From Lachnospiraceae bacterium (lineage in GTDB: Bacteria; Bacillota; Clostridia; Lachnospirales; Lachnospiraceae): DNA of 64,000 nucleotides. Position 1 is the first letter of the stretch, and the number at the start of each line of letters is the position of its first letter. Both the position numbers and the translations under genes were made by a program. Positions 4,731 through 51,501 of this stretch are shown one piece after another. The DNA is taken from assembly GCA_029338735.1 (NCBI GenBank), contig JAQYAY010000038.1, forward strand, positions 3,669 through 67,668. Direction: 5' to 3'. Below the pieces are notes generated by a model, which saw only the letters and a list, made by a program, of their open reading frames with translations, had not been told where the DNA came from and did no database searches.

Positions 4731-4759
4731 CGAAAAAAAGACCCGTGAAATCACGGGTC
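4731..4759 (-). terminator. Intrinsic-terminator-like hairpin inside the cysE leader
   Basis: On the minus strand the sequence is gacccgtg-attt-cacgggtc followed by ttttttt. No minus-strand gene lies upstream of it (lysR diverges on the plus strand). Confidence 0.5.
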
Positions 4760-4897
4760 GGTTGGAAAAAGAAAAAAGATTACTTAACATTGACTGTTCG
4801 TATGTATTATACTAGAATATGACTGTATAGTAAAGTTCAACTTTTTCATTCAATTAATGAAAAAGATTCACCGATACACCAGAAAAAGGAAAAGATA

Positions 4898-5794: not shown

Positions 5795-5803
5795 TTTTTT
5801 AAA

Positions 5804-7390: not shown

Positions 7391-7433
7391 TCTGTCTCCT
7401 CCCTTATTATATATCTATTTTACAAGCTTTCGG

Positions 7434-10465: not shown

Positions 10466-10524
10466 TAAATTCCTCCACGCTTCAAAAATCGTTAAAAATA
10501 TTTTACCATTTTTTTATAAAAAGG

Positions 10525-12440: not shown

Positions 12441-12442
12441 TA

Positions 12443-13036
12443 TTACTCCTCACGGTTGGTGATGACTTTGTCGATCAGACCATAGTCAAGAGCTTCATCG
12501 GCTGACATATAGTGATCACGGTCCGTATCGGCTGCGATCTGTTCTACTGACTTGCCGGTGTTCTGAGCTAAGAGCTCATTCAATCTCTTCTTGGTCTTTA
12601 AAATATTCTCAGCTGCAATCTCAATCTCTGTAGCCTGACCCTTTGTACCGCCTGACGGCTGATGGATCATGATTTCAGAATTAGGAAGTGCCATTCTCTT
12701 GCCCTTGGCACCGCCGGCGAGAAGGAATGCTCCCATAGATGCAGCAAGACCTACACAGATGGTAGATACATCACACTTGATGTACTGCATTGTATCGTAG
12801 ATGGCAAATCCTGCTGTCACCATTCCACCAGGGGAGTTGATATAGAGATGGATATCCTTGTTCGGGTCCTCTGACTCGAGGAAAAGCAGCTGTGCGACTA
12901 CAAGTGATGCTGTAGTCTCATTTACCTCTTCTCCTAAAAAGATGATCCTGTCCTTTAAAAGACGTGAATATATATCGTATGTTCTCTCGCCTCTGGAATT
13001 CTGTTCAACGACATAAGGTATTGTTGCCATAAGCAC
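12443..13036 (-). CDS. clpP: ATP-dependent Clp protease proteolytic subunit ClpP
   Basis: 197 aa. The Ser-His-Asp triad context is [11 protein letters not shown] and IMIHQP. Confidence 0.95.
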
Positions 13037-13056
13037 TTCTTCCTTCCGTATATGTA

Positions 13057-16244: not shown

Positions 16245-18191
16245 CTAAAGATTGAACTGCTTCACGTAGTTCAGGAATTCATCCTCTGGTACCGGCTTGG
16301 AATAGAAATATCCCTGAAGATACCTGACACCGTCTTTTACAAGCCTGTCCTTCTGGTCCTCTGTTTCGACTCCTTCTACAACAGCTTCTCTTCTGAGTCC
16401 ACGTATCAGACTGATCATATTGTCAAAAATGACCTCATTGTCATGACTCTTGAATGAATTCCACAGGAAACTCTTATCCACTTTGATAATGCGGAAAGGA
16501 TAGTTCATGATATACGAATAGTTGGCATTGCCTGTGCCAAAGTCATCAAGAGCAAAGGCCAATCCCATATCATGCAGCCTGTGAAGCACATCCTGCATCG
16601 TGGATTCACTGCCAACCACTGCTGATTCAGTGATCTCAAGATTTATCTCGTCAGATGTAACTCCGTATTTCTTCATGATCTCCGCAAAACGGTCAGGCAG
16701 ATCAGTATCCATGCACTGGATCGTAGACAGATTCACTTCTATAAAGTCTATCCCATACTGCTTTGGATTCTTTTCTGAGATAAAGCGACAGACTTTCTCG
16801 AATACTATCTCTCCGATCTTTCCTACCATTCCGGTATGTTCTGCCACCTTGATGAATTCCTCAGGCGATACATATCCCATATCCCTGTCATTCATCCTGA
16901 CAAGCGCTTCACAGGAATGGATACGATTTGTCATGGTATCATATATCGGCTGATAGAATACTTCAAAGGTATTCCCATCGAGTGCACGGTTCAGTGCGAC
17001 CTCTACCATCGCACGTCTCGCATCAGCCTTCATCACGTCCTCTGCATAAAGGATTCTGTCAGTTGGCAGATTCGCATCGTATCCTCTGTCTGTGAATACC
17101 AGCATCTGTTCTGACTGCGAGATATCATACGGAACAGAACCTATGAGAACCTGAGCCGAATACATTGCTGGTGTGTAATTATATTCCCATTCACGGCTGA
17201 AACGGTTCATGATCATATCAGCCATTGCTACTGCATTTTCCTCAGTATCGTTGAACAGCATCACAGCATATGTGAGTGGCGAGATATGATACACATGGAT
17301 CCTCTCTCTTGTGAGCTGTGACATCCATACATTTATTTTTCTCAGGAGCCCGCTGGCTATTTCCTCTCCAAGCGTCACCTCATACATTTCATTCCTTCTT
17401 ATACGGACCGAAATGACATATGAAGTATAATCTGTGCCTTCAAAAAGGATATTTGTCTCTCTCATGAGGGCATTTTTATTCATGAGAGATGTGCCCTCTT
17501 CAAATGTCTCCCTGTCATTCTCGATATATACATATACACCAAGCATGCACAGTGACTGAAGGAAGACTGTGACACGAAGATACTCATCGATCCATTCAAA
17601 CATCATGGAAACGATAAATCCTATCGTCACAAAAACGACATAACGCAGGTCTTTCTGTGCAAATGTATTCCAGTTCCTCACCATTATCAGAACACCGATC
17701 AGCAGATATGCTATTATGATTCCATAATAGATGACTGCATACAGTTGTCCACGGTTGTAAAAGCCTGCCTTGTCATAGTAAAACAACAGGTGTCTGAGCG
17801 GCGGAACCAGTTCAAATACTGTCAGAAGAATCTGCGGGATTGATATCAGCCAGACTTCGGAATGCCTTACCTCCCTGAAACTCACCAGTATCTCAAGGAG
17901 ATACAGTGTCAGAAGGAACGCTATTGATTCATGGAAGTAATGCGCTACAACAGTGATAAAAGTCTTGAGATTGTTGGAGCAGTCCAGCAGCCCATTTCTC
18001 ATCAGTCCATCGGCGTCCTCGGCTATTGCTGCAATGGTCAGATTTATGAGTAGTAAAACAAACAGCTTCGAACGGTAATTCCTTGCTTTCTTTCTGCTCA
18101 GAAAGAACACAAGAATAAGCGTATCCATCAGACTGGCAGCTATATTGAAATTCAGATTATACTTGCCTGGTGTATACAGTAAATCAAGCAT
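16245..18191 (-). CDS. Membrane-bound c-di-GMP phosphodiesterase: polytopic N-domain, degenerate GGDEF, EAL
   Basis: 648 aa. There are about 6-7 N-terminal TM helices. The middle domain has no GGDEF/GGEEF motif. The EAL domain has EALVRM, NLEITES, DDFGTG, KVDKSF and EGVET. Confidence 0.8.
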   Translation of the reverse strand: MLDLLYTPGKYNLNFNIAASLMDTLILVFFLSRKKARNYRSKLFVLLLINLTIAAIAEDADGLMRNGLLDCSNNLKTFITVVAHYFHESIAFLLTLYLLEILVSFREVRHSEVWLISIPQILLTVFELVPPLRHLLFYYDKAGFYNRGQLYAVIYYGIIIAYLLIGVLIMVRNWNTFAQKDLRYVVFVTIGFIVSMMFEWIDEYLRVTVFLQSLCMLGVYVYIENDRETFEEGTSLMNKNALMRETNILFEGTDYTSYVISVRIRRNEMYEVTLGEEIASGLLRKINVWMSQLTRERIHVYHISPLTYAVMLFNDTEENAVAMADMIMNRFSREWEYNYTPAMYSAQVLIGSVPYDISQSEQMLVFTDRGYDANLPTDRILYAEDVMKADARRAMVEVALNRALDGNTFEVFYQPIYDTMTNRIHSCEALVRMNDRDMGYVSPEEFIKVAEHTGMVGKIGEIVFEKVCRFISEKNPKQYGIDFIEVNLSTIQCMDTDLPDRFAEIMKKYGVTSDEINLEITESAVVGSESTMQDVLHRLHDMGLAFALDDFGTGNANYSYIMNYPFRIIKVDKSFLWNSFKSHDNEVIFDNMISLIRGLRREAVVEGVETEDQKDRLVKDGVRYLQGYFYSKPVPEDEFLNYVKQFNL

Positions 18192-30309: not shown

Positions 30310-33300
30310 CTATTTCAAAAGGAAGCATCCTGTATATTCTTTTCCCTCATAAAATAATACTGCTCTCCTTTCTATTATTTTCATTTTTTCTGTAGCATGA
30401 ATTATGATTCTGCTGGCATCTCCAGGTACATATATCTTCTTCAACGAACCATCAGCCATTTCAGCCCTTATCATATATCCGCTGGCATCCGGATCACTGT
30501 CAAAGTAAACCACTTCCGAAGTTCCTTCATCCACAGTTCTTGAAATCGCCTGCTGAGGTCTGATATACGCTGCCTGAACCTTTTCTGAATCAATGTAAAA
30601 CTCTTTGCCATCAAGTGTCTTAAAATCTGCTCTTATGATGTATTCGTACAATCCTGTACGATCAGGAGTGTGAATATAATACCCGCTGCCATCTATGTCA
30701 TCAAGTCGCTTTTCACTCTCATCAGGAAATAATCTTCTGATCATTGTCCTGTATCCTGATGCATGCTCATCTGTTTCATACTCCAGACTATTTCCGCTGG
30801 TAGAATAGATATCTTTCTGTGCAGTCTTCTTTATTACAGGTGCCTTAAGGTCATATGTTGATTCTGTCTTTGTTTCAGACATGAGACTCTTATAGAGCCT
30901 GCCGCTCTCAACAGATCTGATACATGCATGAGCACTGAGCTCATACTGCCTTCCATCAAGCAGTCTTGCATCTGATATGACTATGTTTTCAGCATCATGA
31001 TAATCCGTATGCATTAATGCACCATTATCTGCCCTATAGAATACTCTGATATAATCAGCTGGTGACTCCTCATCGAATGTCACTCCCAGTGATCTGCATC
31101 CCTTGGCTGTATCTTTTATTACAGGTCTTCTTATGAATGCTGTTTCAATGTAGTCTGAGTAGTCAGAAGTCTCAGAAAGATCTGTCTTTCCTATCTGTGA
31201 TCCTTCACTCTTTACACGGTATTTGTATACGCTCTGCCGCTTAAGGGTCTCGTTGAATATCAGGAGGTCATCACCGGTATTTTTTACCTTTCCTGCTTCT
31301 ACCCATACGGCCATACCCTCACATACTTCACGTCTTTCAACTATATATCCTGAGGCGTTCCTGTCAGAGCGTATGGCAATCTTTACCTTGAGAGAGTCTC
31401 CTGTATCTTCGCATGAAAACTCTGTCTCTGGCTTTTCCAGAGATTCTGTCCTTGCAGTCTGTGAAAGAGTACGCACATATTTACCCTTATAGTAAAAATC
31501 TGCCGCTATGTCATAACTCATACCGGGTTTAAGGGAATCAATAACAACAGATGACTGCATTCTTTTACCAGCAGTTCTGATAATAGCAGGAACATTCACC
31601 CTGCTGCCATCAGCTGCGGTCACTGTCAGTTCTATCCTGTCTGTCTCTGACTTTAAATCCCACATCACACGAAGAGATGAAAGACCTGTCTCGACAAATA
31701 AAGGCTTGTTATGATCATCATTTTCTACTATATTTCCTGCAGTACGATTGGACAGGAATCTCTGTCTCCATTTTCTTAGATCAGAGCGATCATCATAGAG
31801 CATCTGCCTTGTCGCTTTGATGTCATCATCATTAAACTTCCATTTCTCTACAGGAGAATCACCGAAAGCCTTGTCAAGCGCTGCATCATATTCATCTTCT
31901 CTCCACACAGAGCCTGCTATCAGACTTTTCTTATTGTGAGAGTCGATATTCCTCACATATACAGGTGCACTTTTCAGTGTATCCGCTGATGAACCGCTTA
32001 ATCCACGTTTTCCATCATGAGATATATCATCTGTTGTATCTTCTGCATCTTCTGACATGATATGTGCCCTTGCCGTACAGACTGAAGTATGGCCATTATT
32101 ATCAGAGGCCCTATAATACACATTTACACTTCCGACATCACCCAGATTCTTCATGACCTCAATATCAAAAGTACTCTCAGACGGATCTGTATATACTCCT
32201 ATCTGCTCATTAGGTATGTCTCCATCACAGAGATCAGTTACATTTACTGTATCTGGATTTAACAGCCGCCTTCTTATATCATCCGGATCTGATAGCTCAT
32301 CTGCGTAGAAATAGCTGTCATACGCTGTGATTATCGGATATTCATCCCAGACAGCATATATCCTGACAACGGCCTCATCATCTTTAAATGACACATTCCC
32401 CATATCAAGCGCCTTTGCATACAGGCCAATTGAATCCCTCAGGGCATGGCCTTCACGGAAGATTCCATTATCACTGTATACTGCCTTGTCATCCAGGCTC
32501 CATCCTTCATATGCCACTGGATGAAGCAGATTATTTTTCTTTACGCTTTTCCTGAAATAATCCTTCTGATTCTTTTCCGGTCCGGTGTTTCCTGGAAAAG
32601 TGTACGCCATGACAATATTTCTTTCCTGATAGTTCTTCGCTCCATTTGTCTGACCATTTCCATCAAAAAGGAATGTAAATCTGCTGTCCCACACGCCACA
32701 GAATGTGTGATCATCCCCATAGATTCTTGTAATTCTCTCACCTGAGTATCTTTCGTCTCCATATCCTCCATCAGCATTCCTATCCCTCCATCCTGTCTGC
32801 TTCAGTCCTGCTGTGACATCCCTGCCATCATAAAAGATTCTTGATCTGTCAGTCTCATACAGATCAGATGCTACCGTGAATTCAGTCGGTTCTCTCCAGT
32901 AATATAATGTCTTTTCCGGATCTTCTGAACTGAAGTGATCGTTCTTTACTGGCAGATCAGCTTCATATGAGGCTTCCAGAAGACAAGATAAAACCAGGGT
33001 ACCTGTTCTGCCATTAGTATCCTCATCCTTATATTTACCCAGTCCTGATCTGAGACCTGCTGTATGTCCATAAACCTTATCAAACGCAAGTTCAAATCCG
33101 CTCATCTGCTCAGTAATTGATATCTTCTCTTCATCGTTTAGCCCATCATATGTCTCCTGCGAATAGTCAATACCTCCTCCTGCTCCCCATGGAGAGTATA
33201 GTTCTGCCATCACCCGTCCTGGATCTCTGTCAGTCTCTCTTGTAAGAAAAGTTCCTTTTGTTGATCCTATAAGGCTTTCTTCAGATTCATCATAAAAGAA

Positions 33301-35823
33301 ACGTACAGTATGACCCGGATTTAAATATATGACATTATGGCCCGTCGCATCAGGCTCTACCACTGAACCTGCAAGCATATAAAAGAGTCCGTTCTGAAAA
33401 ACAGCATCCTTCTTCGAATCTTTTATAGCTACATTCCTGTAATAGATCAGCTTTCCACTGTTATAAATCCCGTGTATTGCACCATCTATCTCAATCAGAT
33501 CATTTTCTTCAGTGAGCTCATCTCCCATTGTCAGATTGCCACCAAGGCAGTTCCTGATTCCGTACTCACAGGCACTGATCACAGCATTTTTCATCTGTGA
33601 TAGGCCGTAATTCATTATTCCACAGCCACATTTCCCGCTAATGCCTGAAATATCAAGGTCTGAATAAAATTCACCACGCGCAGATCTTTTGATTATTATC
33701 CCAGTTCCCTGCAGTGAAGACTTTATGCTGGTAGTTCCCTTGCCATTTATCTGGAATGGCACATGCATTGCATCATCACCATATATATTGTCAGTCTTAT
33801 TCTTGCCTGCAGAAACTCCAGTATTGCCCCCGTATATGTTTACAGCCGTCTCCGGCTCTATCATAAGATGACCATAAGTACAGACTATTCCTGAATCTGC
33901 TCCGTTTATGATACCTCCTGTCACAGTCAGCGATGATTTGATTCCATCGTCAATATCATCAAATATTCTCTCATCAGAAACAGCCTGCCTTTCTATGGCA
34001 TCGATTTCTTCATCCCCCATATCATGATAGTAATTCATTGCCTGTCTCAATGTATCCATATCTCTGGTACAATCTATGCCAGTGTCATCTGAATATATCA
34101 CAATATCATCCGGGAGTACTATCTTCTTGGAATTCCATAGACCACATGCAACTGCCCTGCTGCCAGCAGGCTGTGATTGCCATGCGCCCGAATGTCTCAC
34201 ACAGATAGTGACATCCTTTCCAATGCTGATGTCGCCATGATTCTGGATACCAGCCCCTCTCGTGCCAGCCATTCCGGAAAATGGTCCTGTCAGGACATTG
34301 ATACTGGAACTCCTCACATTGACAGTACCCTTCGTCCGGCCATTATTCTCACCATTCTTCCTGTCTGGAAGCACATGCTTTCTGAATATACTGCTATTAA
34401 ATCTCCCACTGGTCGTATCAAGTGCCTCATAAATGCCATGATATGCTGCATCATGAAATACATCAATTCCCTTGACGCCTTCTATAATGCATTCTGAAAT
34501 ATCCAGACTGCCACTGCCCCTGAAGTCAAATGCGTCCCCACAGTCACCTCTTATCAGACTCTCTGATATATCAAGAGAAGCATTGCCCTGAATATAAACG
34601 CCATTGAACCTGCCATATATACTGCTGTCTGCACTCACAGATGCACTGGCCGCATGTCCTGCATAAGAATTTATGAGTCCTAATCCTGTACCATAATATC
34701 CATCGGTACCCGTCAGCCTGTATACATCTTTATCCCCCATTCCATACAGTGTACTGGACGCTATAGCGCATCTCCCATAACGCATGACTAAAGCGCTTCT
34801 CCCAGCACTGACCTCAGAATTTATAAGAGAAAGTGTCCCGGATGTCGTACTTCGTCCATCATAGGTCTCATCAAATCCTACAAGTATTCCTACTCCTTCA
34901 GTACCTCCAGAAGCATTCTCTGTAATGTATTCTCCTCCATCGGTTGGTGTACTTATGATATCACCGGAATATGCATCCACATATATATTTTCAAGTGACA
35001 GAGATGCTCCTTCTATTACCAGAAACAGCGTTCCCTCCCCGCTTCTTTTTACTCTTCTGCCATTTCCATTTATATGAACTGTTGAAATGTCGCTTTCTGA
35101 CAGCCATTCACGCCTGTTCTTCCCATCTACGATACACTGTGCTCCATTACTGTCGATACTTCGTGTCAATGACAGATCTGGATACTTGTGCACCTTCTCG
35201 GAAAGGTCTGATGCATCTCTTATATATCTGTCTTTAGGAGTAGTGTATGATTCATTCAATGTACCAGAAGTGGTTGCAGACTCCATGGTAGTGTAATACT
35301 CAGTATGCTCTTCTCCCTTTTCATCCTTATATGTCCATGAATGTGATTCATCCCAGTAGTATGTCTGCGAATATTTTACAGTTACCTGATATTCTTCATA
35401 GTCCAGCAGATGATCAAGTCTTACTTCAGCACTGTTGCCATAAGAATTCAGCGTGATCTGTTCACTACCAGATCTGCTTCTCCCGGCCCCTGTTGATTTA
35501 ACAGGACTCATAGTCCAGCTCACAGTATCAGAATATGAGCCTGAACTCCTTCTTGGTACAGAAAATGTCATTGTCTTGCTGAATTCACCACTACCCGCAT
35601 CAACAGCAGTGACCTTTATATTTCTATGCCGTACCTGCTGAGTCAGATCTTCACGTGCCACAACGACTGCCTGTTCTGACTGTATACCCTGATCAGATAC
35701 ATCCTTCCCAGACCCCTCCGTCTCTTCAGCCATCACTTCAGATACAGGCATAGAACTGATACTGCCAATCATGAATGTACCTGCCAGAATTACTGATATG
35801 ATTCTTTTAATTACTTTTTTCAA
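30310..35823 (-). CDS. Giant secreted protein (1837 aa): Sec signal peptide, Gly-rich beta-helix-like centre, C-terminal beta-sandwich repeats
   Basis: It is an uninterrupted 5.5-kb ORF. The N-terminus is MKKVIKRIISVILAGTFMIGSISSMPVSEVMA-EE. Repeated modules recur in the C-terminal 450-500 aa or so (...DRNASGYIVERRE, DEHASGYRTMIRR, DPDASGYMIRAEM). No LPXTG and no C-terminal TM are present. Confidence 0.8.
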   Translation of the reverse strand: MKKVIKRIISVILAGTFMIGSISSMPVSEVMAEETEGSGKDVSDQGIQSEQAVVVAREDLTQQVRHRNIKVTAVDAGSGEFSKTMTFSVPRRSSGSYSDTVSWTMSPVKSTGAGRSRSGSEQITLNSYGNSAEVRLDHLLDYEEYQVTVKYSQTYYWDESHSWTYKDEKGEEHTEYYTTMESATTSGTLNESYTTPKDRYIRDASDLSEKVHKYPDLSLTRSIDSNGAQCIVDGKNRREWLSESDISTVHINGNGRRVKRSGEGTLFLVIEGASLSLENIYVDAYSGDIISTPTDGGEYITENASGGTEGVGILVGFDETYDGRSTTSGTLSLINSEVSAGRSALVMRYGRCAIASSTLYGMGDKDVYRLTGTDGYYGTGLGLINSYAGHAASASVSADSSIYGRFNGVYIQGNASLDISESLIRGDCGDAFDFRGSGSLDISECIIEGVKGIDVFHDAAYHGIYEALDTTSGRFNSSIFRKHVLPDRKNGENNGRTKGTVNVRSSSINVLTGPFSGMAGTRGAGIQNHGDISIGKDVTICVRHSGAWQSQPAGSRAVACGLWNSKKIVLPDDIVIYSDDTGIDCTRDMDTLRQAMNYYHDMGDEEIDAIERQAVSDERIFDDIDDGIKSSLTVTGGIINGADSGIVCTYGHLMIEPETAVNIYGGNTGVSAGKNKTDNIYGDDAMHVPFQINGKGTTSIKSSLQGTGIIIKRSARGEFYSDLDISGISGKCGCGIMNYGLSQMKNAVISACEYGIRNCLGGNLTMGDELTEENDLIEIDGAIHGIYNSGKLIYYRNVAIKDSKKDAVFQNGLFYMLAGSVVEPDATGHNVIYLNPGHTVRFFYDESEESLIGSTKGTFLTRETDRDPGRVMAELYSPWGAGGGIDYSQETYDGLNDEEKISITEQMSGFELAFDKVYGHTAGLRSGLGKYKDEDTNGRTGTLVLSCLLEASYEADLPVKNDHFSSEDPEKTLYYWREPTEFTVASDLYETDRSRIFYDGRDVTAGLKQTGWRDRNADGGYGDERYSGERITRIYGDDHTFCGVWDSRFTFLFDGNGQTNGAKNYQERNIVMAYTFPGNTGPEKNQKDYFRKSVKKNNLLHPVAYEGWSLDDKAVYSDNGIFREGHALRDSIGLYAKALDMGNVSFKDDEAVVRIYAVWDEYPIITAYDSYFYADELSDPDDIRRRLLNPDTVNVTDLCDGDIPNEQIGVYTDPSESTFDIEVMKNLGDVGSVNVYYRASDNNGHTSVCTARAHIMSEDAEDTTDDISHDGKRGLSGSSADTLKSAPVYVRNIDSHNKKSLIAGSVWREDEYDAALDKAFGDSPVEKWKFNDDDIKATRQMLYDDRSDLRKWRQRFLSNRTAGNIVENDDHNKPLFVETGLSSLRVMWDLKSETDRIELTVTAADGSRVNVPAIIRTAGKRMQSSVVIDSLKPGMSYDIAADFYYKGKYVRTLSQTARTESLEKPETEFSCEDTGDSLKVKIAIRSDRNASGYIVERREVCEGMAVWVEAGKVKNTGDDLLIFNETLKRQSVYKYRVKSEGSQIGKTDLSETSDYSDYIETAFIRRPVIKDTAKGCRSLGVTFDEESPADYIRVFYRADNGALMHTDYHDAENIVISDARLLDGRQYELSAHACIRSVESGRLYKSLMSETKTESTYDLKAPVIKKTAQKDIYSTSGNSLEYETDEHASGYRTMIRRLFPDESEKRLDDIDGSGYYIHTPDRTGLYEYIIRADFKTLDGKEFYIDSEKVQAAYIRPQQAISRTVDEGTSEVVYFDSDPDASGYMIRAEMADGSLKKIYVPGDASRIIIHATEKMKIIERRAVLFYEGKEYTGCFLLK

Positions 35824-35833
35824 TTAATCCCCC

Positions 35834-36445
35834 TCACTGATATACTGCAAGGCAGCTCATACCACCATTTGCATCAACAGATAACTGTTTCCACCTGACA
35901 AATGTCCTGTCTTCCACCTCTGGTGCCTTGACATTCTCAATTTTTTCATATCCCTTTGACGCTCTTCTCACATAGTACAGAAAATTTTCTCCCTCACTAT
36001 AGTCAAATCCTGAGTCTCTCGCTATCTCCCATGGAATGTAATAATTCATACAGACAGTAGGTCTCCTGCTTTCTCTTTCCACAATTGATGTCGTCTGCGC
36101 CTCTACTGTCCCCTTTTTCCCATTTGGAAAGGTATATTTTTCCGTCACATGAGCTGACAGAATCCCCTTATAGATATCTGCTGCCTTTACCTCTATCTCT
36201 ATATCCTTTCCATCGGACTTCATCTTGCCCAGAAAATTGCTGATAAAATCATCAATCAGAGCATCATTGTCTCCAATCTCATCTGTTCCTGTGATACAGG
36301 CCTTATTCAGAGACTGCCTAGCTGCTGAATCAAGGGAACGTTCCAGTTCAGCCTTCCTGATATCCCGTGAGTGAAGGCTTAATAGTATCATTATAATAAG
36401 AATAACCGATACCGCTCCTGCCAGTGAAAATACCAGCTGCTTCAT
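35834..36445 (-). CDS. Hypothetical N-terminally anchored protein of the pilus-like operon
   Basis: 203 aa. The N-terminal TM is MKQLVFSLAGAVSVILIIMILLSL. Its start overlaps the preceding stop (ATGA). Confidence 0.6.
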   Translation of the reverse strand: MKQLVFSLAGAVSVILIIMILLSLHSRDIRKAELERSLDSAARQSLNKACITGTDEIGDNDALIDDFISNFLGKMKSDGKDIEIEVKAADIYKGILSAHVTEKYTFPNGKKGTVEAQTTSIVERESRRPTVCMNYYIPWEIARDSGFDYSEGENFLYYVRRASKGYEKIENVKAPEVEDRTFVRWKQLSVDANGGMSCLAVYQ

Positions 36446-36951
36446 GCATTCCTCCTCTCAACAGCCGTGACAAATACCTGATAATCTGATACTACATGAT
36501 TGCTGTCTATCACATTCACCACAAGTCTGTAACTGCCCGGTGTATCAAACGTGAGTACCTGATCTGTTCTCGAAAGAACCTGGTCTGTCACCTCATATCC
36601 CTCATTGTCAAAATCTCCTCCCTCAAGCAGATAGACATGACTGATATGAATCTTATCTGCCCTTCCTCCATTGACCTTAATAAGAGCTGGAATACTAACC
36701 TGTCTTCCACAAATGACCAGTTCTTCTCCGGACATATCCATATTTGCTGCCGGAATATCCATATGCTTCTTAAGTGCTATCTCTGATGAAGCAAAAGACT
36801 CCTGTACAAGTGAAGTATCTATCTTACCGGTGATCACACCCAGCTTTCCTATTAGCGATAGTCCGCCAAAAATCAGTCCAATGACCAGGACCGTCACAAC
36901 CGCCGCCAGTATTGATTCCCCATATTCCTTGATTACTGTCTGCATCTGCAT
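36442..36951 (-). CDS. Pilin-like protein with a Flp-like N-terminus (169 aa)
   Basis: The N-terminus is MQMQTVIKEYGESILAAVVTVLVIGLIFGG: an EYG motif followed by a hydrophobic helix. The SD is GAAAGGGGG. Confidence 0.6.
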   Translation of the reverse strand: MQMQTVIKEYGESILAAVVTVLVIGLIFGGLSLIGKLGVITGKIDTSLVQESFASSEIALKKHMDIPAANMDMSGEELVICGRQVSIPALIKVNGGRADKIHISHVYLLEGGDFDNEGYEVTDQVLSRTDQVLTFDTPGSYRLVVNVIDSNHVVSDYQVFVTAVERRNA

Positions 36952-36970
36952 CCCCCTTTCTTTTAAAATA

Positions 36971-37078
36971 TCAGAATGATGTCACCGCATTAAGTACCAT
37001 GGCAAAAAAGCCTGTCAAAGCTATACCTGCTGCACAATAAAGTATTGCCATTCCAAAATCTGAAATCAGTATTTTCAT
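36971..37078 (-). CDS. Unannotated 35-aa hydrophobic Flp-like mini-protein
   Basis: Absent from the ORF track. ATG 37078-37076 follows AGGAGGTT by 3 nt. The product is MKILISDFGMAILYCAAGIALTGFFAMVLNAVTSF*. It fills the gap between two operon genes and shares the N-terminal motif. Confidence 0.5.
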   Translation of the reverse strand: MKILISDFGMAILYCAAGIALTGFFAMVLNAVTSF

Positions 37079-37089
37079 ATAACCTCCTG

Positions 37090-37437
37090 TCAGAGCACTG
37101 AAGATATGCTGTGTCTGGCATTATATCCTATCAGTGGTATTCTGTATGTGTAATTGAGTGTAGCCCTGCCATATGAAGGATACGAGTGCCCTTTCTGTGA
37201 CACCGAAACCACTTCCAGTGCGTCTGTGCTTTCTTCCCCAAACTGCTGTCTTGCATCAGCCTTACATGAATCTATGACTTCCTGTGAGTAATTGGAATTT
37301 TCTATTCTGCTGACGTATGACAGAAGTGCCTCATCTGCCTTTGTAGATCTGATTGATGAACCAATTATGCTGACTCCCATACAGGTAAGCACTATCAGAA
37401 AAAATATCCCCATAAAACTCTTGATTACTGTTTCCAT
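37090..37437 (-). CDS. Pseudopilin/TadE-like small protein (115 aa)
   Basis: METVIKSFMGIFFLIVLTCMGVSII shares TVIK(E/S)(Y/F) with the 169-aa protein. Confidence 0.55.
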   Translation of the reverse strand: METVIKSFMGIFFLIVLTCMGVSIIGSSIRSTKADEALLSYVSRIENSNYSQEVIDSCKADARQQFGEESTDALEVVSVSQKGHSYPSYGRATLNYTYRIPLIGYNARHSISSVL

Positions 37438-37447
37438 CTGTCACCTC

Positions 37448-38662
37448 CTACACGACGCCCCTAGCCATGCTTCCCATATATACCACAAACAGAAGCATCA
37501 TATCACAGACCAGCTTGAGTCCTCCTGTCAGCTGCGGTGCAAGGAACAATGCGTACATACCTGCAAGTGAATCCGAGTCAGCTGCCCGCTTTGCTTTATC
37601 ACTCATCTCCTGATTGCGTCTGATGATATCAGCTATCTGTCCCCTGGCTTCTCCGCCTTTTCCTTCTGAGATTGAATACAGCATCTTCATGGTTGATCTG
37701 ACTGCAGGAAGAGTAAACTCTGAGAGAAAATCTGTATACGCATTTTTATCATTTGGATTAAGCCTCAGTCGCCCTATCATTTTCTTCAGCTCAGGCTTTA
37801 TGATCTCGGGTGCGTCATCGTAGGATTTGAAAACCGCCATCTGCACATTTTCTGACTGCATCAGAAGTGATAACTGCATCAGCCATTCCGGAAAGCATGC
37901 CTTGATATACTCTGTGAGCTTCTTTTTTGCCGCCTTCTTACCCAGCTGATCAAAGAAACCATTCCCGTAATTCTCAAATCTCTCGTACTGCTTCACATAT
38001 TCTCTTTCCCTGTCGGTATCGTCAGCGAAATATCCTGCTGTGAGCTTCGAATCCGCCTTGTAGTATATAAACAGATCAAGCACCAGAACCACAACTGTGA
38101 TCACCTGAGCAAACGTATTTGCAGACACATCCAGATTCATACGTCCTGCCATATAGTAAACCATGGAGCATAACAGAAGTGAAGTAATGATGGAAAGAAC
38201 TATTTCTCTTCTCTTCACCTTTTTCTCCTGCTGAAGAGCATATACTCTGTCTGCCCACATTCGTCTGGATTCAAGAAGGAGCTCCACCGACTCACCATAT
38301 TCTCCGCCAAGCGCCTCTGTCCTCAGGGCAAATCTGTGCATCACTGTCAGTCCCTGATATGGATATCGCTTCTCTATTATCTTAAGGGCCTTTTCCTCGA
38401 AATCAGATTCATTGTATGTATTACGAATGTGATCAATTGCTGCACCTATGGTCTTTTTCATCTCACCCGGTTCGAATAGATCATAGGTATCCTCGAGCGT
38501 CGTCAGTACCTTTCTGCTCTTCATAAAAGAATACAGGAACTGTTCCATGTAAATATTGAGATCTGAAAACTTCTGCTGGTAATACCTGTTCCTGTATGTA
38601 TTCCTGATGAGCAACGGAAGTACTATCATTCCTGCCACAAATAATACAATCTGTGGTATCAC
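37448..38662 (-). CDS. Fused TadB/TadC-like (T2SS-F-like) polytopic membrane protein
   Basis: 404 aa from GTG 38662. It has two repeats, each a helical cytoplasmic domain plus TM helices. The frame stays open a further 55 codons upstream (to 38827, CTG) and encodes an extra TM helix. Confidence 0.7.
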   Translation of the reverse strand: MIPQIVLFVAGMIVLPLLIRNTYRNRYYQQKFSDLNIYMEQFLYSFMKSRKVLTTLEDTYDLFEPGEMKKTIGAAIDHIRNTYNESDFEEKALKIIEKRYPYQGLTVMHRFALRTEALGGEYGESVELLLESRRMWADRVYALQQEKKVKRREIVLSIITSLLLCSMVYYMAGRMNLDVSANTFAQVITVVVLVLDLFIYYKADSKLTAGYFADDTDREREYVKQYERFENYGNGFFDQLGKKAAKKKLTEYIKACFPEWLMQLSLLMQSENVQMAVFKSYDDAPEIIKPELKKMIGRLRLNPNDKNAYTDFLSEFTLPAVRSTMKMLYSISEGKGGEARGQIADIIRRNQEMSDKAKRAADSDSLAGMYALFLAPQLTGGLKLVCDMMLLFVVYMGSMARGVV

Positions 38663-38831
38663 ATGCAGACCGAAGAACCTCCCAAGTATAAAAAGTGCAA
38701 CTATAACGATACTGTATCTGACAACAGCTTTCTTAGGCGAAAATACATAGCCGTAAGCTGACAGTTCGTCTGACAGCCTGTTCTTTGTCTTCGTCTTTGC
38801 TTTCGATTTTTTTGAAACTCTTTTCAGAAAA

Positions 38832-40067
38832 TCACCCCCTGCTTCCTGCTTTTCCTATAAATGTCATTCCCCTTCGCATTTTCTCCTGAAATTTCCTGTC
38901 CATATCATTGCATTCCCTGCCATAGCTGACTGCCTTCTTCTCAGCAACCATGCCGGATGCTGCAGGCATGGAAGGTGCATGATAAGAGGTAAATTTCCTG
39001 ATCTGCTCCTGATCTGGCTCAGTATATACATACGGATCATCGATGTTTGCTTCTTCGAATTTCTTCTTCACCTCATCCGGGAAACAAGCGTCGGTCAGTT
39101 CACCTCCATCAAGTATCAGAAGGCACTTATTGTCTCTGCCTCTGCGGTAAAAAAAACCTACCTGATCCACATATCTCATCAGGCCACAGCTTCCATCACT
39201 TCGTGTCACAAGCTTCTTTCTGATAAGGACAGCTACATCTATAAAACTGTAAATATCGTTCTCAAGCCTTCCTTCAGATCGCAGATTCCCAGCCATATTG
39301 AGCATTCTGTCAGGAACCTTCCTCACATCGTCTGTATGAAGCGTGGTCATGCCGCGTACTCCTGTAGAAAAACCTTCCATCAGGTACACTACTTCCTTGG
39401 ATCTGGCTTCCGACAGCATCATCCACTTGGGATTGAGTCTGAGACAGGTCTTAATAGCCTTGGTGTAATCCATGACAGGATTGATCCGAAGCTCCACACT
39501 GTCGCTTCCCGGATTCAGTGCTGCATAATGCCATTCCGGGTTGTCCTCAATAGTGATGACACGTTCTGACTTCGGTATATACTGTGAAAAGAACTTCGCA
39601 CACTCGGTCTTGCCGACCCCGGGCTCTCCACAGAACACCATATTCATCTTCGCACGTACACAGTTGATCAGAAGATTGATCATCTCATCAGTCAGATAAC
39701 CGTCACGGGTCATGCCCTCCCGGGTGAGCCTCGTAAATGGCATTGACTTCCTGATGCAGATGGCTCTGCCAGAAATGGCTGCCGATTCATGAACTATGGT
39801 GATGCGAAGCGTATCTGTCTCTGCCTCCAGGACAGGCGACTGCTTATGAAACTGCTTGCTGACACAGTTGGCAACTCTTTTCGTAAAAGCAGCCACAAAA
39901 TCTTCCGGCAGCTCAGTCTCCGGCGAATACCTCTCATTTGAGGTATTCGACAGCCACAGCCGTCTCCCGTCAAAGTCTATGTCTGTAATCGAATCATCCT
40001 CTATATACTGGTACAGAGGTCCGAAGAATTCAGGCGTGATCACGACCTTCGTGGTCTCCTCCGCCAT
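38832..40067 (-). CDS. CpaF/TadA-like secretion ATPase (T2SSE/VirB11 superfamily)
   Basis: 411 aa. Walker A is GEPGVGKT. The Walker B/Asp box is WMMLSEARSKE. The His box is TTLHTDD. Confidence 0.85.
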   Translation of the reverse strand: MAEETTKVVITPEFFGPLYQYIEDDSITDIDFDGRRLWLSNTSNERYSPETELPEDFVAAFTKRVANCVSKQFHKQSPVLEAETDTLRITIVHESAAISGRAICIRKSMPFTRLTREGMTRDGYLTDEMINLLINCVRAKMNMVFCGEPGVGKTECAKFFSQYIPKSERVITIEDNPEWHYAALNPGSDSVELRINPVMDYTKAIKTCLRLNPKWMMLSEARSKEVVYLMEGFSTGVRGMTTLHTDDVRKVPDRMLNMAGNLRSEGRLENDIYSFIDVAVLIRKKLVTRSDGSCGLMRYVDQVGFFYRRGRDNKCLLILDGGELTDACFPDEVKKKFEEANIDDPYVYTEPDQEQIRKFTSYHAPSMPAASGMVAEKKAVSYGRECNDMDRKFQEKMRRGMTFIGKAGSRG

Positions 40068-40068
40068 A

Positions 40069-40308
40069 TCAGAATCCTCCCATCAGCATAATGATCCCCT
40101 GTGGTGTAGTAGTCGGTTTGGTAACTGTGGTGCCAGATGATGCAGCACCAGTGGCCTTACTGAAAAAATCAGTAATAAGATTTGAAAATGCCTTGCCTAC
40201 AACACTGCCTCCATCCTTTCCGATAAGGAATGTCACAAGTGCTATGAGTGCTAAAATAGCTACAACGGTAATTAATGCCGGTCCATATTCTTTCAGAATA
40301 TCTTGCAT
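40069..40308 (-). CDS. Putative major Flp-like pilin with almost no leader (79 aa)
   Basis: The sequence is MQDILKEYGPALITVVAILALIALVTFLIGK..., with a Thr/Ser-rich C-terminal part. Its stop lies 1 nt before the ATPase ATG. The SD is GAAGGGAGAA. Confidence 0.55.
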   Translation of the reverse strand: MQDILKEYGPALITVVAILALIALVTFLIGKDGGSVVGKAFSNLITDFFSKATGAASSGTTVTKPTTTPQGIIMLMGGF

Positions 40309-40337
40309 AGAATATTTGTTCTCCCTTCAATATAAAA

Positions 40338-40343
40338 TATTAT
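40338..40343 (-). promoter_or_regulatory. Candidate -10 box (TATAAT) of the pilus-like operon
   Basis: TATAAT lies on the minus strand about 30 nt upstream of the pilin ATG. The -35 region is poor (AAGAAA). Confidence 0.35.
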
Positions 40344-40494
40344 ACTAATACGTTACTAAGTTTTCTTAATGCGCATCTATGGAGATAAAAATCCTGAAAA
40401 GATATGGTGAGCTCTCCCTCATTTCGTTTTCTTAACTCCTTGCGTAAAGGATATACTCTTTTAAAATGGAAATCAATTAACAAACGATTAAAGT

Positions 40495-40514
40495 TTTATA
40501 AACTCGAGTTTATA
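40495..40514. promoter_or_regulatory. Perfect 20-bp palindrome (candidate operator) upstream of the pilus-like operon
   Basis: The sequence is ttataaactc|gagtttataa. It is followed by a direct repeat of ttgtttagaa at 40517-40526 and 40528-40537. Confidence 0.45.
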
Positions 40515-40544
40515 ATTTGTTTAGAAATTGTTTAGAATTAGGGT

Positions 40545-40572
40545 ACAAAAAAGGACGGCACTAAGTGTCGTC
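40545..40572 (-). terminator. Rho-independent terminator after mrp/apbC
   Basis: On the minus strand the stem is ggacgacac/gtgccgtcc (9 bp including one G-U), followed by tttttt. A second small hairpin lies at 40586-40600. Confidence 0.7.
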
Positions 40573-40639
40573 CTCTGTTAGTTAAAAAGACTTCAAGTCT
40601 TATTTATAATTTATTCAAATATCATTAAAAGCAGAAATT

Positions 40640-41500
40640 TTATCCTAAAGCTGTGAGCATTCTCTCTGTTATCGGTTCAAAAGGAGCCTCTATCTCATAA
40701 GACTTTCCTTCGTCTTCCTTCGCTGCATACTCAGGATCAATAGGAAGCTTCCCAAGTACAGGAAGACCGAGCGACTGAGCTACCTCATCTATATGGCTCT
40801 CACCGAATACAGAAATCTTCTCACCACAGTGAGGGCACTTCATATAGCTGTAGTTCTCAACTATTCCAAGCACTGGCACATTCATCATGGAAGCCATGTT
40901 GTAGGCCTTCTTCACTATCATGCTGACGAGATCCTGAGGGCTCGTAACTATCACCACACCATCTACAGGAAGTGACTGGAATACTGTAAGAGGCACATCG
41001 CCTGTTCCTGGCGGCATATCCACGAAAAGATAGTCCAGATCTCCCCAGACAACATCAGTCCAGAACTGCTTTACAACATTAGCGATTACCGGCCCTCTCC
41101 AAATGACCGGAGCCTCCTCATCATCAAGAAGGAGATTTATCGACATGATCTTAGTGCCATCTGCGGCCTCAATAGGATATGAGCCCTTGTCATCACCATA
41201 CGCAGGCCCGTGAACTCCATACATCTTCGGTATCGAAGGACCCGTGATATCGGCATCGAGGATTCCTACCTTATATCCGTCACACACCATCATTGCAGCC
41301 AGCTGTCCGGTCACGAAACTCTTTCCGACACCGCCTTTGCCGCTTACAACACCGATCACGTGCTTAATGCTCGAATACTTATTCAGATCCTCATGAAAAT
41401 CAGGCTGTGCCTGCTTCTGCGGCTCACCCTTTATCCCCAGATCCTTGCGGAACTGCTCCACTTCTTTATCTATTTCTTCCTGATTCTTTTCCTTAGCCAC
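40640..41500 (-). CDS. Mrp/NBP35 (ApbC) family Fe-S cluster carrier ATPase
   Basis: 286 aa with a GTG start after AGGAGG. The deviant Walker A is SGKGGVGKS. The CPHCG motif is typical of Mrp/NBP35. Confidence 0.9.
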   Translation of the reverse strand: MAKEKNQEEIDKEVEQFRKDLGIKGEPQKQAQPDFHEDLNKYSSIKHVIGVVSGKGGVGKSFVTGQLAAMMVCDGYKVGILDADITGPSIPKMYGVHGPAYGDDKGSYPIEAADGTKIMSINLLLDDEEAPVIWRGPVIANVVKQFWTDVVWGDLDYLFVDMPPGTGDVPLTVFQSLPVDGVVIVTSPQDLVSMIVKKAYNMASMMNVPVLGIVENYSYMKCPHCGEKISVFGESHIDEVAQSLGLPVLGKLPIDPEYAAKEDEGKSYEIEAPFEPITERMLTALG

Positions 41501-50887: not shown

Positions 50888-50961
50888 CGTGCCCGAGAGG
50901 ATTCGAACCCCCGACACCTTGGTCCGTAGCCAAGTGCTCTATCCAGCTGAGCTACGAGCAC
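50888..50961 (-). tRNA. tRNA-Arg (ACG)
   Basis: The cloverleaf was read by eye: acceptor GUGCUCG/CGGGCAC and anticodon arm CUUGG-CUACGGA-CCAAG. No CCA is encoded. Confidence 0.85.
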
Positions 50962-51030
50962 ACACTAAATGACCGGTAATGGCCTTACGCAACTTCTATT
51001 ATTATAGCACAATCGAAAAGACTATGCAAA

Positions 51031-51114
51031 TGCCGGCGACCGGGATCGAACCGGTACGATGTCACCACCACAGGATTTTAAGTCCTGCGCGTCTGCCAGT
51101 TCCGCCACGCCGGC
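51031..51114 (-). tRNA. tRNA-Leu (UAA)
   Basis: The acceptor is GCCGGCG/CGCCGGC and the anticodon loop is CUUAAAA. A long variable arm is present. Confidence 0.85.
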
Positions 51115-51232
51115 TCGTTGACGCAAGTTCTGCTTCCTCGCGTCTGTCTTGAAAAGCAGACAGACGCAAAATTCGCTCCACTGCGTCTCCTCTCCCCACG
51201 AAGCAGGCTTCGTGGGGTACTGGACACTCCGC
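51115..51232 (-). other. 118-nt structured spacer between tRNA-Asp and tRNA-Leu
   Basis: It contains two perfect 10-bp hairpins: ccccacgaag/cttcgtgggg and gcgtctgtct/agacagacgc. Alternative GACGC/GCGTC pairings are also possible. It ends in acttgcgt, like the leader before tRNA-Glu. Confidence 0.6.
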
Positions 51233-51306
51233 CGACCTGAGAGGGGTTCGAACCCTCGACCTCCGCCGTGACAGGGCGGCGCTCTAACCAACTGAGCCAC
51301 CAGGCC
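51233..51306 (-). tRNA. tRNA-Asp (GUC)
   Basis: The acceptor is GGCCUGG/UCAGGUC (two G-U pairs). The anticodon arm is CCGCC-CUGUCAC-GGCGG. Confidence 0.8.
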
Positions 51307-51329
51307 TCACTCCGTAAATTACGGATAAG

Positions 51330-51403
51330 TGGATCCTCGGGGACTCGAACCCAGGACCGACCGGTTATGAGCCGGTTGCTCTAACCAACTGAGCTAAGGA
51401 TCC
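51330..51403 (-). tRNA. tRNA with CAU anticodon (elongator Met or lysidine-modified Ile2)
   Basis: The acceptor is GGAUCCU/AGGAUCC. The anticodon arm is ACCGG-CUCAUAA-CCGGU. The T stem has one U-C mismatch. Confidence 0.8.
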
Positions 51404-51429
51404 GGACGGGTAGCAAAGACCCGATTAAC

Positions 51430-51501
51430 TGACTCCGACGGGAATTGAACCCGTGTTACCGCCGTGAAAGGGCGATGTCTTAACCGCTTGACCACGGAGC
51501 C
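51430..51501 (-). tRNA. tRNA-Glu (UUC)
   Basis: The acceptor is GGCUCCG/CGGAGUC. The anticodon arm is UCGCC-CUUUCAC-GGCGG. Confidence 0.85.

Follow-up and report, generated by a model that had tools for sequence, protein, structure and literature searches.

Subunits of type IV filaments (T4F) are made with a class III signal, in which a short basic leader with Gly or Ala at position -1 precedes a hydrophobic helix of ~20 residues that often carries Glu at position +5. On the conjugative plasmid pLS20, gene 37 is described as a 'putative VirB11', genes 36, 38, 39, 40, and 41 are listed as 'unknown', and the adhesin Tie (gene 34) is encoded nearby (PMC8557374). In this work, we analyzed computationally a 64-kb stretch of contig JAQYAY010000038.1 from an uncultured, rumen-type Lachnospiraceae bacterium (hereafter the window; its g2 ATPase has a 100% match in a metagenome-assembled genome), in which eight densely packed open reading frames (ORFs), g1 to g8, span positions 40308-30310 of the minus strand and appear to encode relatives of the plasmid-borne block. 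We consider with moderate confidence that these eight genes form one operon for a compact and strongly diverged machine of the T4F class, the filament of which would present a large protein. No description of such a system was found in the searchable literature under leaderless pilins, T4F of Lachnospiraceae, or the pLS20/pXO2 VirB11 together with a pilus or T2SSF, in agreement with an earlier note made from the letters of the window (the sequence-only reading), which had been unable to match the locus to a described system.

Re-reading of the coordinates placed all eight ORFs where the sequence-only reading had put them. The intergenic distances from g1 to g8 are, in order, 1, 4, 10, 11, 19, -4, and 10 nt. 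The packing with gaps of 1-19 nt or overlaps that had been claimed holds when g3 is read from a CTG codon at 38827, and fails with the start given in the mechanical ORF list, a GTG at 38662, which yields a product of 404 aa and leaves a gap of 169 nt to g2. The g3 frame is open up to the CTG, which lies 4 nt past the stop codon of the ATPase gene g2 and has an AGGGGG ribosome-binding site 7 nt upstream. Homologues of g3 are 444-504 aa long, their alignment covers the extra 55 N-terminal residues, and the CTG aligns with the ATG (L001, L086) or TTG (L002, L008, L016) starts of relatives. In addition, an independent assembly (L081) carries the identical CTG. Based on the alignment of homologues, the ribosome-binding site, and the recurrence of the CTG in a second assembly, g3 encodes a protein of 459 aa with a non-canonical start. 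Gene callers shorten the protein to 404 aa, whereby its basic N-terminus and first transmembrane helix are lost. Of 80 genome loci of Lachnospiraceae, Roseburia, Clostridium, Anaerosporobacter, and other groups, ~75 show the order g1-g2-g3-g4-(g5)-(g6)-g7-large protein, and an exhaustive profile search for the platform gave 869 clusters at 50% identity, next to 2181 matches for the ATPase. Judged by these matches, the system is a large family and not a one-off. With the exception of the ATPase, all its parts are annotated as hypothetical proteins without a Pfam domain.

The second gene, g2 (40067-38832; all operon coordinates refer to the minus strand), encodes a 411-aa secretion ATPase of the VirB11/CpaF/archaeal supergroup. 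It matches the Pfam family T2SSE (1.8e-18), and its best NCBIfam matches, VirB11 (3e-26) and the TadA-family conjugal-transfer-associated ATPase (5e-23), are all far under the family cut-offs. Searched against PDB, a profile of 15 g2 sequences matched HP0525/VirB11 (1.3e-23), CpaF (1.3e-21), and afGspE (1e-18), followed at lower ranks by FlaI (4e-15) and PilB/PilT (~1e-6). The Walker A motif, Asp box, Walker B motif, and His box are all intact, and the motif residues G147-E155, E174/D175, S219/E220/R222, and H244/T245 are invariant in 15 homologues. These matches identify g2 as a predicted hexameric ATPase of the T4F type within the PilB/VirB11 superfamily. In a neighbor-joining tree of bacterial sequences (342 columns, 100 bootstraps), the window ATPase family was monophyletic in 100/100 replicates and sister to the 'putative VirB11' clade of pLS20/pXO2-type Gram-positive plasmids in 99/100; it grouped with CpaF in 0/100 replicates, and never with VirB11/TrbB. 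The same picture emerged from a tblastn search against plasmids, where uncharacterized genes of the 'CpaF/VirB11 family' from Paraclostridium, Bacillus, Listeria, and pXO2 outranked proteobacterial CpaF, and true VirB11 and TrbB ranked well below.

The platform gene g3 (38827-37448) encodes a polytopic protein with five hydrophobic segments. The window protein itself gave no match in sequence and profile searches of Pfam, NCBIfam, or PDB, and the family was placed by more sensitive comparisons. PF00482 (T2SSF) was matched by 32 of 95 diverse family members, with a best value of 8.4e-7, far more often than any other family. The two halves of g3 align with each other (E=0.0047), giving T2SSF-like repeats at residues ~56-229 and 291-457, and with deeper profiles both halves align with the T2SSF region of a genuine TadB (E=0.002-0.007). 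These deeper profiles were needed, as a shallow profile of 27 g3 sequences gave nothing significant against single sequences of TadB, TadC, and the plasmid proteins p38 and p39 (the products of genes 38 and 39). An AlphaFold2 (AF2) model of g3 (pLDDT 80, pTM 0.73) repeats one unit twice, in which four short helices lie between two long ones. The top Foldseek neighbour of this model in PDB is a PilC chain of the type IVa pilus machine (3jc8_Ca; E=3e-3, prob 1.0, low template modelling (TM) score). From the profiles and the predicted fold, we regard g3 as a platform of the T2SSF type with two repeats, strongly diverged and reached by remote homology. The fused TadB/C-like membrane protein of the sequence-only reading thus stands as far as a single fused platform is concerned; the fusion, however, corresponds to plasmid genes 38 and 39, and the ATPase that goes with it falls outside CpaF.

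Profile-profile comparison connected more of the operon with the plasmid block. Residues 13-262 of g3 align with residues 9-260 of p38 (Prob 96%, E=2.7e-9, 243 columns) and residues 325-406 with residues 110-191 of p39 (E=9e-5). Using plasmid profiles of three sequences each, g7 matched p36 (E=3.3e-5), g4 matched p40 (E=2.6e-4), and g1 matched p41 weakly (E=0.009). The remote-homology links thus appear to consist of one strong signal, that to p38, and several weak ones that agree with one another. Based on the sister relationship of the ATPases and the profile matches of g3, g4, and g7, the window operon would be a chromosomal cousin, with a fused platform, of the block in the conjugation operons, and by transitivity from the window family the plasmid block would be T2SSF/T4F-like as well. 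The pLS20-type layout was also found in the Gram-positive plasmids L084, L089, and L090, and the block is likewise present in pXO2/pAW63-type and Paraclostridium plasmids. Like the window, the plasmid block has the sister ATPase, a one-helix protein of ~47 aa in the position of g1, and a large adhesin, and in the 60-kb Bacillus subtilis plasmid, of which 50 kb were examined, no gene is annotated as a peptidase. There are also differences. The plasmid block sits in a type IV secretion system (T4SS) operon with VirB4, VirD4, VirB6/8, VirB1, and a VirB2-like protein, whereas the window locus is chromosomal and without these; the platform is encoded by two genes in the plasmids and by one fused gene in the window; the plasmid adhesin has a thioester domain and lacks the conserved core of g8 described below; and the EY-G signature of the window subunits is not evident in p41. 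In two of three plasmids, the p41 proteins (~47 aa) have a polar N-terminus that ends in Gly before the helix. The block in L084, L089, and L090 is followed by a VirB2/TrbC-like or CagC-family gene, and plasmids of this type may have genes for a VirB2-type pilin as well as for a T4F-like module. Clustering with conjugative T4SS, which the sequence-only reading had named as a finding that would speak against its proposal, was thus encountered in a limited sense: the module does occur inside pLS20/pXO2 conjugation operons, but it is T2SSF/T4F-like and not VirB-type, and no T4SS genes accompany it in the window.

Five small genes encode candidate filament subunits. The first, g1 (40308-40069), encodes a 79-aa putative major subunit, unmatched in Pfam, that starts MQDILKEYG and continues into a hydrophobic helix of ~20 aa. 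The others follow the platform gene: g4 (37437-37090), a 115-aa minor-subunit candidate without a Pfam match (METVIKSFMG, then a hydrophobic helix); g5 (37078-36971), a 35-aa subunit-like micro-protein (MKILISDFG, then a hydrophobic helix); g6 (36951-36442), a protein of 169 aa in which MQMQTVIKEYG and the helix are followed by a β-rich, immunoglobulin (Ig)-like C-terminal domain; and g7 (36445-35834), a modular minor-subunit candidate of 203 aa with a C-terminal Flg_new-like β domain at residues 130-202. In each of the five, the sole hydrophobic segment lies at the extreme N-terminus. The start M-x-[ED]-I-x-x-[EQ]-[YF]-G followed by a hydrophobic helix is shared by g1, g5, and g6, and g4 has a looser version of it. 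The N-terminal 41 residues of g1 are homologous to the N-terminus of g6 (hhalign E=3.3e-10), and g4 is paralogous to g7 (E=2.6e-4). All 63 distinct g1 homologues start with M-[QKD]-[ED]-I-[FLI]-[KE]-[EQ]-Y-G at the same Met and are usually 54-62 aa long. In many of them, in-frame stops lie directly upstream, so that there is no room for a leader. In ~70 of 80 loci, g4 directly follows the platform gene, and g5 is conserved in 11 loci (BLAST; 77% identity in L001), with a logo, M-K-E-[LI]-I-S-[DE]-[YH]-G, that agrees with those of g1 and g6. The signature extends to the Clostridium-group loci, in which proteins of 56 aa, 50 aa, and 178/179 aa start with M-x-E-I-F-x-[EQ]-[YF]-G, the 50-aa protein, equivalent to g5, being the one that starts MQEIFEEYG; proteins of 113 aa and 129 aa show looser versions. 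Taken together, g1 and g4-g7 appear to behave like one pilin set. In the window, L001, and L004, g1 is extended by a T/S/P-rich linker and a short hydrophobic tail (...TTVTKPTTTPQGIIMLMGGF; window 40069-40140). Most of the 54-62-aa family members lack this extension, which might act as a glycosylation linker or make a second contact with the membrane.

An AF2 model of g7 (pLDDT 83; H2-50, H60-75, E81-90, E95-105, E111-121) has a pilin-like topology, in which an N-terminal helix of 50 residues and a second, short helix are followed by an antiparallel sheet of three strands, with a separate β domain after these. Weak Pfam matches among the homologues of the small proteins were to DUF5411 (g7), Flg_new, and Ig families, with Bact_surface_Ig-like and Flg_new matches among relatives of g6. 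In all five subunit families, a near-invariant Gly stands right before the hydrophobic helix; the 6-10 residues ahead of it are strongly conserved and either acidic or neutral, and Glu is absent from position +5 after it. This allows two readings, in which the N-terminus of the subunits is either retained or trimmed by cleavage of a 6-10-residue leader after the Gly. Retention is favoured by an N-terminus that is conserved like that of a mature pilin and is acidic or neutral instead of basic, and by the EY dyad just before the helix. In processed Flp, the EY dyad likewise stands just ahead of the helix (PMC3244431).

The peptidase that such a cleavage would need was searched for in the window and in ~89 related loci, using a loose active-site pattern on polytopic ORFs and a CpaA profile, and no A24 peptidase was found. 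In the precomputed Pfam annotation of four loci (L083 and L086-L088), PF01478 was absent as well. TadZ, secretin, sortase, and LPXTG signals were likewise not found in the window or the ~89 related loci, nor was a sortase among the neighbouring genes scanned, which corroborates the gaps listed in the sequence-only reading. Since a peptidase and canonical Flp pilins are not a regular part of homologous loci, the window locus is not a fragment of a fuller one. The ParA-like gene upstream of the operon was considered as a TadZ and rejected: it is an Mrp/NUBPL protein (PF10609, 6e-92) separated from the operon by a terminator, and its adjacency reflects shared synteny. Elsewhere, the window contains a canonical pair of a PilB-type ATPase gene (3446-1716, minus strand; T2SSE 6.6e-135 and an MshEN domain) and a PilT-like ATPase gene (1692-634, minus strand), directly upstream of RNase Y and not followed by pilC, pilD, or pilin genes. 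Given this pair, the genome probably has other type IV pilus (T4P) genes and may plausibly encode a peptidase at another site, so that the locus may not be as self-contained as the sequence-only reading had it. Loci for mannose-sensitive hemagglutinin (MSH) pili are also without a prepilin peptidase of their own (PMC6668835). With this precedent and with other T4P genes in the genome, a peptidase-free locus would not be unprecedented.

The last gene, g8 (35823-30310), starts at TTG and encodes a giant protein of 1837 aa with a Sec-type signal peptide, the cleavage of which is likely after VMA at ~residue 32. It has a right-handed β-helix region, for which Pfam gives just a weak Beta_helix match, and recurring 'ASGY' motifs in its C-terminal region, which we read as Fn3-like. 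No LPXTG-like motif ([LI]PX[TSA][GAN]) and no C-terminal or second hydrophobic segment is present in g8, and no relative was found among PDB sequences. At residues ~985-1372 lies a core of ~380 aa that is common to the large proteins encoded after g7 in distant loci; in it, Flg_new repeats are combined with a DUF5011-like Ig domain and with a tail motif, 'YVRFI..Y....GL..S.W'. A hidden Markov model (HMM) of the core was searched in the 63 loci that were informative in having at least 6 kb of downstream sequence. A core-bearing partner was found downstream on the same strand in 52 of these and upstream in three more (55/63 in total), and the proposal that the giant gene travels with the ATPase/platform pair is thereby borne out. 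In the partners, the core is mostly C-terminal, behind variable N-terminal domains such as subtilase, β-helix, or carbohydrate-binding module (CBM), and their N-termini are Sec-like. Pfam domains in 21 partners were Peptidase_S8 (five), Flg_new (seven), Flg_new_2 (four), and Beta_helix, fn3, and CBM_4_9 (one each). The exception to the Sec-like N-termini is a 921-aa protein in L035 that fuses a g7-type N-terminus to the g8 core. The distribution and position of the core suggest a docking or recognition module. In L087, the locus is split: the small accessory genes and a 923-aa core-bearing Beta_helix protein (2292-6933) lie upstream of the subunit, ATPase, and platform genes (9797-13925), and the gap of ~3 kb between the two parts contains unrelated genes for DUF2804, AraC, and metallophosphatase proteins.

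The Tad/Flp (type IVc) system shares several features with the locus, namely a single bifunctional-type ATPase of the same supergroup with no separate retraction ATPase, a platform of the T2SSF type, a tiny major subunit (~60 aa) whose hydrophobic helix is immediately preceded by a Glu-Tyr dyad, more than one minor subunit, and a single large protein encoded last in the operon (cf. TadG). It differs in that the window ATPase lies outside the CpaF clade (0/100), in that one fused platform takes the place of TadB and TadC, and in that the window subunits lack the G/XXXXEY leader, their EY standing at positions 7-8 of the primary translation product. Matches to Flp_Fap and TadE, as well as TadV, TadZ, and CpaB/RcpC, are also missing from the window. 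Archaeal T4P and Epd systems resemble the locus in their minimal set of an ATPase, one platform gene, and pilins, and in an ATPase supergroup that includes FlaI and afGspE, but they depend on PibD, EppA, or FlaK peptidases and class III signal peptides. Of the 'minimal monoderm Tad/Epd-like machine' proposed in the sequence-only reading, the minimal monoderm T4F type with an ATPase, a fused platform, and pilin-like subunits is therefore retained, and the affiliation with Tad/Epd is given up in favour of a sister relationship to the pLS20/pXO2 VirB11 block, since the ATPase never joins CpaF and Flp_Fap, TadE, and DUF4320 are not matched. The MSH system, which shares the lack of a prepilin peptidase in its locus (PMC6668835), differs as a diderm system derived from type IVa pili, with PilB-type ATPases, a secretin, and canonical prepilins. 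For the relation of g8 to the subunits, the closest analogies are functional. In the type IVb systems of the toxin-coregulated pilus (TCP), with TcpF, and of the colonization factor CFA/III, with CofJ, a secreted protein encoded in the operon docks on a minor pilin at the tip, as g8 may do on g6/g7, and TcpF is reported to bind the minor pilin TcpB, a precedent for tip docking (PMC9565799). The tip adhesins PilY1/PilC are a further analogy for this link, as are the modular pilins of Streptococcus sanguinis, with stalks fused to functional modules as in g6, g7, and the L035 fusion. None of these systems has sequence or structural homology to the window locus, and they use class III prepilins with a dedicated peptidase.

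In the machine that we favour, the hexameric ATPase g2 would dock on the single platform g3, which corresponds in fused form to TadB and TadC or to p38 and p39, and the two would pull membrane-anchored subunits, chiefly g1, from the bilayer into a thin filament. The minor subunits g4-g7 would prime or cap this filament, g6 and g7 each bearing an additional module, Ig-like or Flg_new-like, on a stalk that resembles a pilin. The Sec-exported g8 would be captured through its ~380-aa core by the modules of g6/g7, and the filament could show a giant β-helix protein, an adhesin or an enzyme, outside the thick wall with no need of sortase, LPXTG signal, or wall-binding repeats. Lacking the classical basic leader, the subunits may be used unprocessed, or a piece of 6-10 residues may be cut after the Gly by a peptidase encoded at a remote site. 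Filament formation, the roles of the minor subunits, the docking of g8 on g6/g7, and the absence of processing are steps that we infer.

Several observations weigh against a display filament of this kind. An acidic or neutral N-terminal segment is unusual for a membrane protein with a cytoplasmic N-terminus. Neither Flp_Fap, TadE, and DUF4320 nor any other pilin model was matched in Pfam searches by 138 homologues of g1 and g4-g7; for Flp_Fap, 0/30 g1 homologues matched at E<=1, and TadE had no match among 108 homologues of g4-g7. Profile comparisons with hhalign were not significant for g1 against two genuine Flp proteins (E=0.3) or for g4, g6, and g7 against five TadE-family proteins (E>=0.035), and together with the Pfam results this puts the small proteins outside the known pilin families. 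Foldseek gave no significant PDB neighbour for the g7 model, the best being unrelated folds with TM scores of <=0.2, so that the 'pilin-like fold' of g7 is a matter of topology. Likewise, the TM score of g3 and PilC is low, at 0.26-0.34, the target being itself a modelled chain, and the T2SSF ancestry of g3 is remote, with a window protein that scores nothing on its own. A core-bearing protein within 10 kb is missing from eight of the 63 informative loci, and the fusion of g7 and the g8 core is a single case from a metagenome-assembled genome (MAG). Finally, adhesion or display is not the sole reading of the operon because its nearest relatives sit in conjugation operons.

A more far-reaching version is that the operon is the founding chromosomal example of a separate T4F family of Bacillota with leaderless subunits and peptidase-free assembly, of which the pLS20/pXO2 'VirB11' block would be the split form and the chromosomal version would have been re-purposed to bring giant core-tagged adhesins or enzymes across the wall. 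The N-terminus M-x-[ED]-I-x-x-E-Y-G would then stand in for the processed N-terminus of a pilin, and Gram-positive conjugation systems, which have been thought to be pilus-free, would build a T4F-type filament. We put this forward as a tentative possibility.

Alternatively, the large proteins could be released instead of displayed. A wall-crossing machine resembling a type II secretion system (T2SS) would use a short pseudopilus as a piston to release Sec-exported, core-tagged proteins, and the core would be the secretion signal. Variable enzymatic or adhesive N-terminal domains joined to one C-terminal core do form the pattern of a recognition tag, g8 has no LPXTG signal, wall-binding repeat, or membrane anchor, and five of the 21 partners are subtilases, a class that is usually released; the operon also contains no retraction ATPase. 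However, the fusion of a g7-type stalk to the core in L035 argues for stable attachment and not for release, and the extra extracellular modules on g6 and g7 fit display at a tip. Moreover, monoderms need no T2SS for Sec substrates to reach the medium, and no component specific to a T2SS is present. We regard secretion of this type as rather unlikely.

An ordinary prepilin system, with leaders of 6-10 residues cut after the Gly at position 7-10 by an A24 peptidase of the PilD, ComC, or TadV type that is encoded elsewhere, would explain the near-invariant Gly right before the helix in every subunit family, and the locus would then be unusual in its sequence divergence but not in its mechanism. 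A genome with the PilB/PilT pair of the window very likely has other T4P genes, and peptidases are shared between systems, as in the MSH loci without one (PMC6668835). It is the segment ahead of the Gly that fits this explanation poorly: it is acidic or neutral (MQDILKEY, MKEIFEQY) and not basic, and unlike normal leaders it is conserved as strongly as the helix across orthologues and paralogues. Pro follows the Gly in 44% of the g1 homologues, no Glu follows at +5 of the cut, and copies on mobile elements with identical subunits, spread over at least six genera, are also without a peptidase. Such borrowed processing is, in our view, unlikely.

How far the operon can be tied to conjugation depends on its surroundings. 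Among the neighbours scanned in the window, those upstream are mrp, electron transfer flavoprotein (ETF), and thiolase/butyryl-CoA pathway genes, and the downstream neighbours are genes for CNNM/CorC, a tetratricopeptide repeat (TPR) protein, and pyr genes, with purD, clpX, tig, secDF, serS, and glyA further out. The order mrp...operon...corC/pyr is kept in L086, L087, and L088 despite 50-83% ATPase identity, and the GC content at the locus is unremarkable. Based on the conserved synteny and normal GC content, the operon appears to have been inherited vertically in this lineage and not to be a recent mobile element. No VirB4, VirD4, VirB6, relaxase, integrase, or replication gene was found among the annotated ORFs of the window, and a tblastn search with a platform homologue against PLSDB (72,556 plasmid records) gave no match.

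A second subgroup of the window family, from Clostridium, Anaerosporobacter, Lacrimispora, and others, has a different context. An identical 56-aa g1 homologue, MKEIFEQYGSVIIAAVAISALVAIIVMLLATDGVVANSFKNLIDSFFNRAASTITG, occurs in L036, L040, L041, L043, L047, and L049, which are labelled [Clostridium] fimetarium, Lachnotalea, Anaerocolumna, Clostridiaceae, and Lachnospiraceae, and loci of Anaerosporobacter and Lacrimispora (L038, L042) have a variant with a single residue exchanged. Identical 56-aa subunits across genera point to recent horizontal spread of this subgroup. [Clostridium] fimetarium has two copies of the system (L029, L049). The operons of C. cavendishii (L052) and C. tyrobutyricum (L065) are flanked by genes for DUF6037 and an FtsK/SpoIIIE-like membrane ATPase, and the L052 flank also has a helix-turn-helix (HTH) gene and a Rep_trans gene of the rolling-circle/relaxase type (flanking regions 6874-8932 and 16625-17830 in L052; 6652-8019 in L065). 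This context is like that of an integrative and conjugative element (ICE) or an integrative and mobilizable element (IME), but without VirB4; other members of the subgroup adjoin ParM-like genes. Identical subunits together with FtsK-like, Rep_trans, or ParM-like neighbours indicate that the second subgroup is mobile. A distant variant was found on an 83-kb contig labelled 'UNVERIFIED Bacteriophage sp.' (L098, MT835474), with an ATPase of 41% identity, a platform of 21% identity, a duplicated subunit gene (MKETVAHILEIAVVV...), and adjoining ParM-like and signal-peptidase-I-like (GSSMSPT) genes. An origin in phages was considered and rejected, as the sole hits were metagenome contigs with this label that are plasmid-like in look. 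L044, titled Thermoguttaceae (Planctomycetota), contains practically the same locus as the Roseburia MAG L045 and is probably mislabelled or contaminated.

The operon might accordingly be read as a module for mating-pair formation or DNA transfer, either a remnant of an ICE or a domesticated piece of one. Its ATPase is sister to the pLS20/pXO2 'putative VirB11' clade (99/100) and has a TadA-family conjugal-transfer-associated ATPase as its second-best NCBIfam match; g3 is homologous to conjugation-operon genes 38 and 39, and g4 and g7 are probably homologous to genes 40 and 36, respectively; and Clostridium-group copies, with subunits identical across genera, lie beside FtsK/SpoIIIE-like and Rep_trans genes (L052, L065) or ParM-like genes. 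The window itself does not bear this out, as its annotated ORFs include no VirB4, VirD4, VirB6, relaxase, integrase, or replication gene and housekeeping genes flank the operon. A chromosomal neighbourhood that is kept at 50-83% ATPase identity, a GC content that is not anomalous, and a platform unmatched in 72,556 plasmid records speak in the same direction, and a role of the window operon in conjugation is very unlikely. That the operon is a decayed, non-functional leftover of a Tad locus, as the missing peptidase, TadZ, and recognizable pilin domains and the lack of a canonical start codon in g3 might suggest, is hardly credible and was rejected, given eight intact and tightly coupled ORFs, invariant catalytic motifs, a gene set conserved in hundreds of lineages (2181 ATPase matches, 869 platform clusters), and a CTG that stands where relatives of g3 have ATG/TTG and is repeated in an independent assembly.

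Regarding the boundaries of the operon, the gene upstream, at 41500-40640, is mrp (ParA/NUBPL family; PF10609, 6e-92). The terminator that had been described behind it is present on the minus strand at ~40552-40574, as a 10-bp G+C-rich hairpin followed by TTTTTGT, and it insulates the operon from upstream transcription. Between the terminator and g1 lies an AT-rich 5' region (40309-40551, minus strand; GC=0.396 for the 40001-41000 block) with a TATAAT -10-like hexamer at 40344-40339, ~30 nt before the ATG of g1. No convincing -35 element was seen in the 5' region, where a promoter scan flagged no site, so that the operon promoter is a putative one. An Rfam search of the 5' leader gave nothing credible, including no riboswitch for cyclic di-GMP. 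An EAL-domain protein (cyclic di-GMP phosphodiesterase) and a protein with a methyl-accepting chemotaxis protein (MCP) signalling domain are encoded in the window at 16245-18191 and 7955-8956, respectively, and a cluster of five tRNA genes is located at 50888-51501 on the minus strand.

If the operon does encode a filament of the T4F class as we favour, several consequences would follow. The homology to the plasmid block leads to a first hypothesis on what pLS20 genes 36-41 do, together with their counterparts in pXO2/pAW63, and raises the idea of a filament in Gram-positive conjugation. Should the subunits be used unprocessed, they would be an exception to the supposedly universal T4F rule of a class III leader and an A24 peptidase. 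The platform and all subunits are invisible to Pfam and NCBIfam and, by extension, probably to HMM-based detection of T4F. The conserved core on variable giants with β-helix, subtilase, or CBM domains suggests a new, sortase-independent route for display or release across the thick wall. As the family is large and common in Lachnospiraceae of gut and rumen, Roseburia, and clostridia, surface structures of abundant commensals may have been overlooked.

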